DNA from: Candidatus Falkowbacteria bacterium RIFOXYC2_FULL_36_12
GTDB taxonomy: Bacteria > Patescibacteriota > Patescibacteriia > UBA11705
Direction: 5' to 3'
DNA length: 64,000 nucleotides
Assembly (NCBI GenBank): GCA_001778235.1
Contig: MFGJ01000007.1
Location: 264,331 to 328,330 of the forward strand
The notes beneath the pieces were generated by a model that did no database searches, was not told the DNA's origin, and saw nothing but the letters and a program-made list of their open reading frames with translations. The first letter of the stretch is position 1. The number at the start of each line of letters is the position of its first letter. A program made the position numbers and the translations under genes. This document shows positions 1,331 through 4,950 of this stretch, in pieces.

Positions 1331-1408
1331 GTATTGCTCGGGCTGACTAAATTCCCCCGACTCTGAAGGTCGAGGGAATTTTATATTAAGAAATTCAGTT
1401 ATAAATTT

Positions 1409-1561
1409 TTATTCCTCACTTACAGTGAGCATTTGATTGAACTCTTGGCGGTCATTCCATTCGGCTTTTTTCCCTTTATTCCAACGATTTACCGGACTTA
1501 GGTAGCCGACTACTCTAGAATAAATTTCACATTTCTGTCGTTCTAGTTTTTTTGATGTCAT
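1409..1561 (-). CDS. stand-alone glycyl-radical domain of class III RNR (NrdD C-terminal module) as a 50-aa micro-ORF
   Basis: The hand translation is MTSKKLERQKCEIYSRVVGYLSPVNRWNKGKKAEWNDRQEFNQMLTVSEE. RVVGY plus N-GK--E---R matches the NrdD glycyl-radical motif (RVCGYLG...NAGKQEE..R). A strong SD (GGAGGGAGG) lies 8 nt upstream of the ATG. The ORF sits between nrdD and nrdG and is not in the ORF track because it is under 60 aa. Confidence 0.6.
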   Translation of the reverse strand: MTSKKLERQKCEIYSRVVGYLSPVNRWNKGKKAEWNDRQEFNQMLTVSEE

Positions 1562-1687
1562 AATATTACGACCTCCCTCCAAGAATAACCTCTTGTTATA
1601 AATTTTTGGGATTTTTATTTTTATTTATTAGTACCTATATTTTATAACTTTTTTTACATTATGTTAAACCAATATTTATCCACAAAA

Positions 1688-3751
1688 TTAGTTTTCTGAA
1701 GCTTTAGCCAAAACATCCGAGCCAGCCTCAATATAACCCATTTCCTCATCACAACGAGGACAATATTCATGCTCGCCAGAGATATAACCATGAACCGGGC
1801 AAATACTAAATGTTGGAGTTATGGTGAAGTATGGCAGACGAAAATTTTCAGCAATTTTCTTGACCAAAGATTTTGTTGAGCCAATTGATGGCATTTTTTC
1901 TCCAACAAAACCATGAAGAACCGTACCGCCTGTATAACGAGTTTGCAAATCATCCTGAAGTCGAAGAGCTTCAAAAATATCATCGGTATAGCCAACTGGA
2001 AGCTGGGAAGAATTGGTATAATAAGGATCAGCTCCTTTTTCAACATAATCTTTTTCATTGGCAACAATAATCTCTGGGTATTTGCTTTTATCAATCTTGG
2101 CAAAACGATATGAAGTACCTTCGGCAGGAGTAGCTTCGAGATTAAACAACTGATTGGTTTCATTTTGGTAATCCATAAGTCTCTCTCGCATAAAATCAAG
2201 GGTCTGACGAGCGAATTTATGACCTTCAACAGTGGTGATATCTTGACCGAGTAAATTAATTGAAGCTTCATTCATACCATTGAGACCAATAGTATTGAAA
2301 TGGTTTTTCCAATATTCACCAAATCTTTCATGGATTGTGCTTAAATAAAATTTACTATAAGGATACAAACCACCTTTGGTGAATTCTTCAAGCGCTTTTC
2401 GCTTTATTTCAAGACTTTGTTTGGCTAAATCCATTAATTCAGCGATACGAGCAAAATATTCTTCTTTATCTTTGGCAATAAAGCCGATCCTTGGCAAATT
2501 AATTGTGACAACACCAATTGAACCGGTCAAAGGATTTGCGCCAAAGAGTCCGCCGCCACGCTTTCTAAGTTCTCGGTTGTCCAAACGCAAACGACAACAC
2601 ATACTACGAGCATCGTCTGGACTCATATCTGAATTTATAAAATTTGAAAAATATGGAATACCGTATTTGGCAGTCATGCCCATAATCTGATCAATAATCG
2701 GATTGTCCCAATCCCAGGTGCTGGTTACATTGTAAGTTGGAATCGGCCAGCTAAGTACACGGCCACTTTTGTCACCTTCGGTCATGACTTCAATAAAGGC
2801 CTTGTTGAACATATCCATTTCTTGTTGATATTCACCGTACTTTTCCTTTTGCGGTTGGCCTCCAATAATTACTGATTCATTGGCCAATATACTTGGGACA
2901 AAAAGATCAAGCGTAACATTGGTAAAAGGTGTTTGAAAACCGACTCTAGTAGGAACATTAATATTATACAAAAACATCTGTACCTGCTGTTTTACACTTT
3001 CAAAATCCAACTTATCATAACGGATAAACGGCGCAACTAAAGTATCAAGCGAGGAAACTGCTTGGGCACCGGCTGCCTCACCCTGAAGGGTATAAAAGAA
3101 ATTTACCAATTGGCTCAAGGCAGTAGCAAAATGCTTTGGTGGTTTACTCTGGACTTTACCCTGAACACCACCAAAACCACGAAGCAAAATATCCTTGAAA
3201 TCCCAGCCACAACAGTATGGTGCAAGTAGTTGTAAATCATGGATATGAAAATCACCGCTAACATGTGTATCTTTTATATTTGGTGGATAAACTTTGTTGA
3301 GCCAATAATGTGAACTGACTGTGGAGGCAACATAGTTATTTAATCCCTGTAAAGAATAATCCATGTTGGAATTTTCTTTTACCCGCCAATCATTTAATTT
3401 CAAATAATCTTCCATCAGCTGATCAGAATTGATCATGGCATCTAAATCACGAATTTTTGCATGCTGGTCGCGATAAATGATATAAGCTTTGGCTGCCTGA
3501 ATAAATTTTTGTTCAATTAGACAGTTTTCAACCATGTCTTGAATTTCTTCAACTGCTGGGATTGTTCGTTCATGAAACTTTTCATTTATCCTTTTCATGA
3601 CAATGTCTGAAATGTTCTCTGCGTCTTCTTGGGTCCCAGTCTCGGTAGCTTGCAAGGCCTTGAAAATAGCTTTGGTTATTTTTTCCTGTTCAAAATCCAC
3701 AATACGGCCATCGCGCTTGCGAATTTGGATGATTTTGTTTCCTGCGTACAT
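1688..3751 (-). CDS. nrdD: anaerobic ribonucleoside-triphosphate reductase, large subunit lacking the glycyl-radical tail
   Basis: 687 aa with an ATP-cone-like N-terminus. The C-terminal Zn ribbon is CPVHGY...CPRC. The protein ends right after the Zn ribbon without the RVxGY glycyl-radical motif. Confidence 0.9.
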   Translation of the reverse strand: MYAGNKIIQIRKRDGRIVDFEQEKITKAIFKALQATETGTQEDAENISDIVMKRINEKFHERTIPAVEEIQDMVENCLIEQKFIQAAKAYIIYRDQHAKIRDLDAMINSDQLMEDYLKLNDWRVKENSNMDYSLQGLNNYVASTVSSHYWLNKVYPPNIKDTHVSGDFHIHDLQLLAPYCCGWDFKDILLRGFGGVQGKVQSKPPKHFATALSQLVNFFYTLQGEAAGAQAVSSLDTLVAPFIRYDKLDFESVKQQVQMFLYNINVPTRVGFQTPFTNVTLDLFVPSILANESVIIGGQPQKEKYGEYQQEMDMFNKAFIEVMTEGDKSGRVLSWPIPTYNVTSTWDWDNPIIDQIMGMTAKYGIPYFSNFINSDMSPDDARSMCCRLRLDNRELRKRGGGLFGANPLTGSIGVVTINLPRIGFIAKDKEEYFARIAELMDLAKQSLEIKRKALEEFTKGGLYPYSKFYLSTIHERFGEYWKNHFNTIGLNGMNEASINLLGQDITTVEGHKFARQTLDFMRERLMDYQNETNQLFNLEATPAEGTSYRFAKIDKSKYPEIIVANEKDYVEKGADPYYTNSSQLPVGYTDDIFEALRLQDDLQTRYTGGTVLHGFVGEKMPSIGSTKSLVKKIAENFRLPYFTITPTFSICPVHGYISGEHEYCPRCDEEMGYIEAGSDVLAKASEN

Positions 3752-3836: not shown

Positions 3837-4349
3837 CTAATTGTTTTTGTTGATTTTAGCCAACTCTGATTCAAACTCTTCAGCATCTTTGAAAGATTTA
3901 TAAACTGAAGCAAAACGGATATAAGCGACCTGATCGACTCTTTTCAATTGCTCCATGGCAATCTCACCAATTCTTTGGCTGGAAATTTCAGAGTTGTTTT
4001 TGTTTTTTTTAACTTCAATTTGAATTTCTCTTTCAATATTATTAATCAGTTTTTTTATTTCATTGTCCATGATTGATCTTTTCTCAAGAGAACGGCAAAT
4101 ACCTTTTTCTAATTTAGCTCTAGAATATGCTTCTCTTTGTCCGCTTCTTTTTCTAACCATGAGATCAAGCAACTCAACTGCTTCATAAGTTGAAAAACGA
4201 AAACCGCACTTGCAACATTCACGACGACGACGAATAGCTAGATCATCTGAAGCAGAACGAGAATCAAGTACCTTTGTCTCTGGATTGTAACAAACTGGAC
4301 ACTTCATGGGATTAACTATATTTAGTATATTCAATAACAATTTTACCAC
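3837..4349 (-). CDS. nrdR: transcriptional repressor NrdR
   Basis: N-terminal Zn ribbon MKCPVC...CCKCG followed by an ATP-cone. It lies immediately upstream of nrdD. Confidence 0.9.
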   Translation of the reverse strand: MVKLLLNILNIVNPMKCPVCYNPETKVLDSRSASDDLAIRRRRECCKCGFRFSTYEAVELLDLMVRKRSGQREAYSRAKLEKGICRSLEKRSIMDNEIKKLINNIEREIQIEVKKNKNNSEISSQRIGEIAMEQLKRVDQVAYIRFASVYKSFKDAEEFESELAKINKNN

Positions 4350-4439
4350 AATATGTGCTTTACTCCAAAGTTTAAATACTTTTATAAAAATGATGTTAAA
4401 CTAAAATAAATATTTGTGTCGGGAAATATAAAGTGATTG

Positions 4440-4930
4440 TTATCCACAGAATTTTGTTGTAGTATTTTTGGTTAGTAAAATTATTGTTTCAGCAAAGCTG
4501 TTACTTTTTGACATCCTGCCTACCCTGCCTACCCTGCCTACCGGCAGGCAGGTGGCAGGCAGGCCCCGAGGCTTACCGTGTTCGTGGGGTTGTTGTATTG
4601 CTAAAGTAAGTTTTTTGAGATTGTGTGATTCTTTCGCTTTGCGAGCTACTTTTGACACCAAAAGTAGCCAAAAGTGCTGGGGGGATTCAATGCGAATTGC
4701 ATTGTTCATCCCTAGTGCATTGATTACCCGCAGAATCCCCCCAGACCCCTATGCTTGGCATATTTGTGGGATTTGATATTAAAGTTAGTGATTGGTTTTG
4801 CTAAAGCACGCCCCAGACCTGCCTTCATCAAGATTACGGCAGGCAAGCCCCGAGGAATATCATTCTTGATATTTTTGGATTTGGAGATTTGGCATAAGTG
4901 AATGGGCACAAGTTTTTTAAAAAACAAAAA
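4440..4930. repeat. about 500-bp non-coding region dense in perfect hairpins and dispersed-repeat copies
   Basis: (cctaccctg)x3 followed by ggcaggcagg. A 10-bp stem gctacttttg/caaaagtagc. A 10-bp stem ggggggattc/gaatcccccc enclosing aatgc-gaatt-gcatt. A 41-bp family-A element at 4811-4851. The track ORFs here are low-complexity and repeat-encoded. Confidence 0.6.
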
Positions 4931-4950
4931 ACTGAGAAATATTATCCCAG

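Follow-up and report, generated by a model that had tools for sequence, protein, structure and literature searches.

The nrd locus and its reading frames

In Candidatus Falkowbacteria bacterium RIFOXYC2_FULL_36_12, the class III (anaerobic) ribonucleotide reductase (RNR) NrdD is encoded by two neighbouring open reading frames (ORFs), the smaller of which carries the glycyl-radical loop. We describe this arrangement in a 64 kb stretch of a contig from that genome, hereafter the window; coordinates are window positions unless they bear an L or P prefix. On the minus strand the order is nrdR, a 687-amino-acid (aa) NrdD, a gap of 126 nucleotides (nt), a 50-aa ORF, a spacer of 175 nt, and nrdG (Table 1). 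The larger ORF terminates in ...CPVHGYISGEHEYCPRCDEEMGYIEAGSDVLAKASEN*, and the smaller reads MTSKKLERQKCEIYSRVVGYLSPVNRWNKGKKAEWNDRQEFNQMLTVSEE throughout. The RVxGY motif is missing from the 687-aa ORF and sits instead on the 50-aa ORF, past five in-frame stops: the two ORFs share a frame here, and straight-through translation would meet five TAA codons between them, the terminator counted.

Both flanking genes are nrd genes. The nrdR product is 156 aa as called on identical contigs (L001), and a version with a GTG start extends to 4349. The nrdG product reaches 215 bits against the NrdG2 model TIGR02495, for which the cutoff is 131. A first-pass annotation of this DNA had described an NrdD that stops beyond its Zn ribbon with no RVxGY tail, a separate 50-aa ORF 126 nt downstream that has its own Shine-Dalgarno sequence and bears a glycyl-radical motif, and a gap with too many in-frame stops to be a single sequencing error. 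Each of these statements was confirmed, and the profile matches below place the motif.

Table 1. Features of the nrd locus and its flanks in the window.
Feature	Position	Strand	Basis
Perfect DnaA-box 9-mer TTATCCACA, upstream of nrdR	4440..4448	+	exact match
nrdR, transcriptional repressor of nrd genes	3837..4307	-	Pfam Zn_ribbon_NrdR (E 1.5e-18) and ATP-cone
nrdD-large, class III RNR catalytic subunit, 687 aa	1688..3751	-	Pfam NRDD and ATP-cone; NCBIfam PRK08270
Perfect DnaA-box 9-mer (TGTGGATAA on the coding strand), 3 nt past the nrdD-large stop	1676..1684	+	exact match
Intergenic gap, AT-rich, exactly 126 nt	1562..1687	-	four more in-frame TAA after the terminator; no recognisable RNA family
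Promoter-like element TTAACA-17-TAAAAT, 10 of 12 match	1639..1667	-	motif; -10 block AAAGTTATAAAATA conserved in relatives
Shine-Dalgarno GGAGGGAGG, 10 nt 5' of the small-ORF ATG	1572..1580	-	read from sequence
Small subunit, 50 aa, glycyl-radical loop RVVGY (Gly19) and NrdD C-terminal tail	1409..1561	-	Pfam NRDD, NCBIfam
Terminator-like 13-bp GC-rich hairpin followed by AATTT, directly past the small ORF	1349..1381	-	fold 1235-1412, z = -3.2
nrdG, radical-SAM activase of class III RNR, 231 aa	539..1234	-	NCBIfam TIGR02495, Pfam Radical_SAM and Fer4_12

The two ORFs together cover one NrdD

When the two ORFs were compared with protein family profiles, their matches abutted almost to the residue. 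The Pfam NRDD profile, with a cutoff of 26.2 bits, was matched by the large ORF over positions 1-532 of 562 (595 bits, E 1.8e-178) and by the small ORF over positions 531-562 (37 bits, E 2.1e-9). Similarly, the NCBIfam model PRK08270 was covered from 3 to 652 of its 684 positions by the large ORF and from 649 to 683 by the small one. On this equivalog model (NF006126) the large ORF scored 1034 bits (cutoff 548), and it reached 510 bits against TIGR02487 (cutoff 326). At E <= 1 the small ORF matched PF13597 (NRDD) alone in Pfam, and in NCBIfam it matched NrdD models alone; the Gly_radical domain of the pyruvate formate-lyase (PFL) type (IPR011140) was not found on it in either scan. It aligns with residues 616-647 of the 651-residue Thermotoga maritima NrdD and covers the final ~35 residues of the T. 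maritima and Prevotella copri NrdD chains of known structure, so the peptide does align with the glycyl-radical end of the family. Class II RNR models stayed far below their cutoffs and matched the ATP-cone only; both ORFs are class III. The agreement of the two ORFs with NrdD is thus far beyond a chance match, and as judged from sequence the pair has every hallmark of a class III RNR, save that the glycine loop is not on the chain of the barrel.

The large subunit is complete except for the loop. It carries the ATP-cone, the full ten-stranded barrel, the finger-loop Cys and the Zn ribbon, and it retains all 92 columns that are conserved at >=97% across 64 split and continuous NrdDs, including C386 (in the CCRL finger loop), C651, H654, C664 and C667. 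The Zn ribbon pattern C651-x2-H654 ... C664-x2-C667, a predicted metal site, is complete and conserved on this chain, and the interruption comes after the ribbon and before the glycine loop, at about residues 610-616 of T. maritima NrdD. A canonical glycyl-radical domain consists of a Zn site, then a buried Gly loop, then a surface tail, as in P. copri NrdD (PMC11226230). Therefore, the small ORF represents the loop-plus-tail half and not the whole domain, and the first description of a separately encoded glycyl-radical domain holds for the loop and tail only, the Zn ribbon having stayed on the large subunit. The possibility that Cys11 of the small protein bridges the subunits by binding Zn was considered and rejected: four conserved ligands are already present on the large subunit, and Thr or Pro takes the place of this Cys in some homologs.

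The truncation is shared by the relatives of the large subunit. The protein is 100% identical to OGF30135.1, annotated as 'ribonucleoside triphosphate reductase' in Candidatus Falkowbacteria bacterium RIFOXYD2_FULL_35_9, a metagenome-derived genome of the Patescibacteria (also known as CPR, the Candidate Phyla Radiation). Among its 120 closest homologs (67-100% identity), 119 lack RVxGY and stop 8-30 residues past a conserved CxxC-DEE[MI]GY. The sole exception, P0202 (83% identity), looks continuous but exists solely as a read-level protein assembly. Its sequence matches the window protein exactly for ~420 residues and departs from it thereafter, and it was rejected as a chimera. A continuous nrdD among the orthologs, which the first-pass annotation had named as the observation that would point to an assembly error, was thus not seen.

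The small ORF is a conserved and overlooked microprotein

The exact small protein was recovered on 17 contigs from independent samples (ENA, JGI and Logan), always in the same gene order. The 50-aa ORF as query retrieved 38 homologs, each 41-67 aa long, that share the Met start and 15 invariant residues; the stretch LERQKCEIYSRVVGY together with the Met start is kept in 37 small-ORF homologs. A profile built from these homologs and run against 1.84 billion cluster representatives gave 4898 matches at E <= 0.001, the best 150 of which are all 44-149 aa long, nearly all of them consisting of a Met and a short variable leader followed by (R/K)xxCEVYSRVVGY. For the 28-codon core, 435 pairwise comparisons among 30 stand-alone small ORFs gave a pN of 0.18 versus a pS of 0.86, the latter saturated. 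These values indicate strong purifying selection on the small ORF.

It has nonetheless been passed over by gene callers. The small ORF is uncalled in the NCBI record GCA_002773615.1 and in two JGI assemblies (L085:3677-3832, L086:3676-3831 and L087:3734-3889), and for the Falkowbacteria genome of the window it has no NCBI accession (window 1409-1561). It is a microprotein that annotation misses systematically. This habit of annotators, and the metagenomic assembly of the source, are what might lead one to suspect an error of assembly or sequencing, or the remnant of a decaying pseudogene. We consider such an artefact to have next to no likelihood, given that the structure is identical on 17 contigs from independent samples, that the truncation is common to 119 of 120 homologs, that synonymous changes in the small ORF are saturated and nonsynonymous ones few, that the large subunit reaches 1034 bits on an equivalog model, and that the operon with nrdR and nrdG is intact. 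The proposal of a naturally two-piece NrdD accordingly stands.

The split recurs across phyla

To see how far the arrangement extends, genomes were sampled at one per GTDB species and the 80 best loci inspected. About half of these loci have the break at this position, and the remainder are continuous, with CPxC-x5-8-CEVYSRVVGY in one chain. Split forms are carried by Dojkabacteria, Saccharibacteria and other Patescibacteria, by Woesearchaeota and Nanobdellota, by one Thermoplasmatales genome, and by Halanaerobiales and Synergistales; the layout is thus also present in DPANN archaea, and it occurs on phage contigs as well. Within this Patescibacteria clade the split NrdD is the norm. The layout does differ from that of single-chain NrdD, as had been noted at the outset, but it is not peculiar to this genome.

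About 30 split loci were read base by base. In every one the small ORF opens with its own ATG, 7-20 codons ahead of YSRVVGY. The terminator of the large ORF varies among TAA, TAG and TGA, the gap is AT-rich, 24-220 nt long and unconserved across clades, and the two ORFs are in the same frame at some loci and in different frames at others. The small ORF adjoins the large subunit in every split locus examined, either directly or just past nrdG. The latter order, nrdD-large, nrdG, small ORF, is found in Halanaerobiales and some other Bacillota, and NCBIfam models confirm it in the cultured Halanaerobium saccharolyticum MA284_T2.

These details bear on the idea that the halves are rejoined at the level of RNA or translation, by a self-splicing intron, ribosomal bypass, frameshifting or readthrough, to give an ordinary single-chain NrdD. 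The shared frame of the two ORFs in the window and the frequency of introns in Patescibacteria lend this some appeal, and phage T4 nrdD reportedly contains a group I intron. However, any such process would have to get past five in-frame TAA codons in the window, no Rfam intron or other family was found in 1200-2100, and the gap is only weakly structured (z = -1.7). Among relatives, gaps shrink to 24-40 nt and the frame relation differs by locus, a conserved Met and leader open every small ORF, and in Halanaerobiales the whole nrdG gene lies between the halves. Own ATGs and varied stops, gaps and frames exclude readthrough and frameshifting and leave no room for a self-splicing intron, so that rejoining in any of these forms appears very unlikely. 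An alternative genetic code was also rejected, since the intervening stops are all TAA and, to our knowledge, no bacterial code reassigns TAA.

In-frame inserts of ~300 aa were seen in a number of NrdDs: in the split large subunits L009, L010, L033 and L040 (1006-1066 aa), in the continuous L017, L024, L052 and L063 (~1000-1100 aa), and in P0244, P0246, P0250 and P0306, the last of which has a precomputed intein Pfam domain (PF14890). They are probably inteins that lie elsewhere in the gene and are unrelated to the break studied here.

Such inserts do raise the question of whether a split intein might ligate the halves after translation, by protein trans-splicing, as in metagenomic 'fractured genes'. 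RNR genes are classic intein hosts, some relatives have the inserts just described, P0306 with its PF14890 among them, and fractured RNR genes with split inteins are said to be known from metagenomes. The dimensions of the present ORFs speak otherwise: the large protein extends only ~20 residues beyond its Zn ribbon, and on the small one ~10 precede the conserved Cys, far too few for intein halves. The flanks of the break vary in both length and sequence, and Pfam finds no intein domain in either ORF. Trans-splicing is therefore as hard to credit as an artefact.

A bootstrapped neighbour-joining tree of the large subunit distributes the split forms over several clades. The split clade of Saccharibacteria and Dojkabacteria has a bootstrap of 99/100, and the split L079 nests inside continuous Thermoplasmatales with 100/100. 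Taken together, this nesting and the differences in gene order imply more than one gain or loss of the split state. A single origin was considered and is not supported, given the position of L079 and the clade-dependent gene order; several deeper nodes are weak. The continuous L015 falls, with weak support, among the split relatives of the window. Its NrdD (L015:1784-4171) has a long linker of the split type, DEENGYVEG...RQKCE (CDEENGYVEGMVVDEKRQKCEVFSR), and either predates the fission or is the product of a re-fusion.

Candidate regulatory elements in the gap and flanks

The gap was aligned across four Falkowbacteria-type loci, namely the window, L085, L086 and L087. It diverges among them except for TGTGGATA(A/G)AT and the block AAAAAGTTATAAAATA. 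The first of these contains the reverse complement of the DnaA box TTATCCACA, and TGTGGATA is invariant at the same place in L085, L086 and L087; the second overlaps the promoter-like site. Three perfect DnaA boxes occur in the 64 kb window versus 0.94 expected, and two of them flank the nrd locus. Each of these two is followed by a similar promoter-like stretch, TTTAACA...AAAGT(T)AT, of which the copy in the gap is conserved in related genomes. The promoter-like motif itself occurs 10 times in the window versus 3.5 expected. Beyond the small ORF, the hairpin stem CCCTCG..GTCGGGGG is conserved in L085-L087.

In E. coli, nrd genes are under DnaA control. The element at 1639-1667 may act as a promoter and the hairpin at 1349-1381 as a terminator. 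The conservation of DnaA box, promoter-like element and hairpin around the small ORF suggests that it may form its own transcription unit, possibly tied to DnaA, and with its own promoter-like element, Shine-Dalgarno sequence and terminator-like hairpin it could be expressed independently of the large subunit. The RNA of the gap is not convincingly structured (z = -1.7), and an Rfam search of 1200-2100 at E <= 10 found no intron, returning only chance matches to small nucleolar RNAs (snoRNAs) and small RNAs (sRNAs), none better than E 0.8.

Two further stretches near the locus are rich in repeats. The spacer between the small ORF and nrdG holds, at 1244-1321, direct repeats AAGCGAG(T/A)A(C/A)AGCGAGAACAG (plus strand) around a second GC hairpin, CCCGCC...GGCGGG; neither the repeats nor this hairpin is conserved in L085-L087. 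Between nrdR and a HAD-family gene lies an unusually long gene-free stretch (4350-4950, ~600 nt) with GC-rich repeats, GGCAGGCAGGCCCCGAGG at 4554-4571 and 4838-4855 and tandem GGCAGG units near 4543, in which no Rfam family reached threshold.

Related glycine-loop ORFs in other Patescibacteria and on viral contigs

In Moranbacteria, Parcubacteria and Minisyncoccales an extra ORF of ~86 aa lies between nrdG and a complete NrdD that has its own RVxGY (L054:3064-3399, L055:4140-4427, L072:4119-4418 and L078:4128-4421). This ORF contains its own Zn ribbon (CxDCG...CxxCH) together with a TEVYSRVVGY glycine loop. A search for it gave 829 clusters, the best 120 of which are all 80-113 aa. From its sequence, it looks like a true spare for class III RNR in the style of GrcA, the stand-alone glycyl-radical cofactor of PFL.

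Viral contigs carry a different kind of relative. Among the 80 best viral loci, drawn from IMG/VR (L088-L167), 62 have a stand-alone glycine-loop ORF of the NrdD type, and 71 have no homolog of the NrdD large subunit within 3 kb. Of 58 stand-alone viral ORFs checked, none has a radical-SAM neighbour as judged by a crude motif test. For example, one such ORF (L101:2941-3144) lies between the genes for the terminase large subunit and the portal, and another (L124, ~3001-3120) between those for the portal and a minor head protein. One viral subfamily has a conserved leader, ..NGDLxLDNGxxIPAxKR... These copies look like phage-borne orphan radical-loop microproteins.

A probable class III RNR of two polypeptides

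The best explanation of the locus is, very probably, a functional class III RNR made from two separately translated polypeptides, in which the radical carrier is obligate and acts in trans. NrdG would take a hydrogen from Gly19 of the small protein, whether free or already docked, the glycine loop would insert into the barrel of the large subunit beside Cys386, and the radical would then pass from Gly to Cys to substrate, as in single-chain NrdD. Since the large subunit lacks a glycine loop, the small protein would be an obligate part of the enzyme and not a spare. In single-chain NrdD the glycyl-radical domain is a mobile unit that leaves the barrel for activation (PMC11226230, PMC13450708), which makes a mechanism in trans plausible, as do the precedent of GrcA/YfiD, which is radicalised as a stand-alone protein and complements a large enzyme in trans, and the orphan copies that phage contigs carry with no large subunit nearby. 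Oxygen inactivates glycyl-radical enzymes by cleaving the chain at the radical glycine (PMC13450708). For this reason, placing the vulnerable glycine on a ~6-kDa protein could offer the advantage of a replaceable part that is cheap to remake after such cleavage.

Several points weigh against this interpretation. The assembly of the two proteins and the activation of the peptide are read from sequence. AlphaFold gave the small protein, from a 37-sequence alignment, a mean predicted local distance difference test (pLDDT) score of 63.7 with a C-terminal helix only, and gave a fusion of large and small proteins, run as a single sequence with no alignment, a pLDDT of 33.6; neither model was informative. 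The 50-residue piece has no Zn ribbon and is far smaller than GrcA (~14 kDa), which puts its affinity for the barrel in doubt. All trees were built by neighbour joining, with several clades poorly supported, and the readings of promoter, DnaA box and terminator are motif matches with conservation in four close loci only. Finally, 64 kb of the genome was viewed, and a second, complete RNR is possible elsewhere.

This last point, together with the true extra ORFs with Zn ribbon and Gly loop that stand beside complete NrdDs in Moranbacteria and Parcubacteria and the orphan copies in phages, would be compatible with the small protein being a regulator of, or a spare for, a complete NrdD encoded elsewhere, the truncated large subunit being inactive or radicalised in some other way. 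We think this improbable, if less so than rejoining of the halves. Purifying selection has preserved every catalytic residue of the large subunit, which nevertheless lacks a Gly loop, the small ORF is next to it in every split locus examined, and the profile halves abut exactly; moreover, keeping a 687-aa barrel that is never radicalised is implausible in a reduced genome.

The two-polypeptide enzyme invites a more elaborate proposal, which we offer tentatively and with some doubt: that the radical glycine is a replaceable, exchangeable protein cofactor of class III RNR, separately encoded and separately regulated. A ~6-kDa protein would be made from its own DnaA-box-controlled promoter, radicalised by NrdG and docked into the large subunit, to be exchanged after oxygen damage or upon release induced by dATP, and the orphan copies of phages would plug into the large subunit of the host.

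Significance

Glycyl-radical enzymes are defined as single chains that bear the radical on a C-terminal domain, the one known exception being GrcA/YfiD, a spare for PFL. If the more elaborate cofactor proposal is correct, the small protein would be the first obligate glycyl-radical carrier that works in trans and the first counterpart of GrcA outside PFL. At ~50 residues it would provide a minimal natural substrate with which to study how an activase recognises and radicalises a glycine, and the split NrdD would lend itself to work on loop entry into the barrel and on the handling of oxygen damage. The cultured carrier Halanaerobium saccharolyticum makes the idea testable. For annotation, the uncalled small ORF makes Patescibacteria, DPANN archaea and others appear to have a radical-less NrdD. 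The orphan copies in phages suggest that there is a new type of auxiliary gene, one acting on the deoxynucleoside triphosphate (dNTP) supply of the host.

A 2021 paper counted only YfiD and Y06I as validated stand-alone glycyl-radical proteins (PMC8683613). A review of June 2026 knew stand-alone radical proteins only for formate lyases and listed their existence for other family members as an open question (PMC13450708). A natural split NrdD would answer that question for the essential anaerobic RNR, with the loop in trans as the normal state and not only a means of repair. We found no description of a split class III RNR in the openly searchable full-text literature; prior mention is possible in subscription-only literature, which lies outside that search. 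The two-polypeptide NrdD is real, conserved, functional-looking and widespread and, apparently, unrecognised.

Comparison with known systems

Among the closest known systems are the single-chain NrdDs of phage T4, T. maritima (4COI/4U3E) and P. copri (8P23), with which the split form shares the family, the domain order, the catalytic residues, the Zn ribbon, the RVxGY motif and the NrdG partner. The difference is that their chain is unbroken, whereas here it stops after the Zn ribbon and the Gly loop follows on a second chain.

Interrupted RNR genes have precedents in phages. The class Ia NrdA of Aeromonas phage Aeh1 is reportedly split, its 'genes in pieces' arising from a homing endonuclease gene, and both Aeh1 NrdA and T4 nrdD are RNR genes that are interrupted at conserved sites and still functional. 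Unlike these, the gap described here contains no mobile element, endonuclease ORF or intron, and the interruption is conserved and under selection across phyla.

A split RNR of another class is NrdJa/NrdJb of Pseudomonas aeruginosa, a class II enzyme encoded by two adjacent genes whose products must assemble (cited in PMC9669993). The likeness lies in two adjacent ORFs that together cover a single-chain homolog (1-532 and 531-562 of the NRDD profile in our case). The systems differ in RNR class, in the B12 cofactor and in the split point, and NrdJb is a large folded C-terminal domain and not a loop of ~50 residues.

In function the nearest parallels are GrcA/YfiD of E. coli and Y06I of phage T4, which are autonomous glycyl-radical cofactors for PFL (PMC8683613, PMC13450708). 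As in these systems, a small stand-alone protein bears the radical glycine loop. GrcA/YfiD receives its radical from the activase of its large partner enzyme and acts in trans within that enzyme's barrel, and the same is proposed here. The analogy drawn in the first-pass annotation therefore survives as a functional likeness and not as homology: GrcA is homologous to the C-terminus of PFL and is ~14 kDa, whereas the small ORF is of the NrdD type (PF13597), encodes ~6 kDa and has no Zn-ribbon half. The roles differ as well. GrcA is a spare that acts after oxygen cleavage for a partner with a loop of its own, whereas the partner here is loopless, as it is in 119 of 120 homologs, and its small protein would be obligate.

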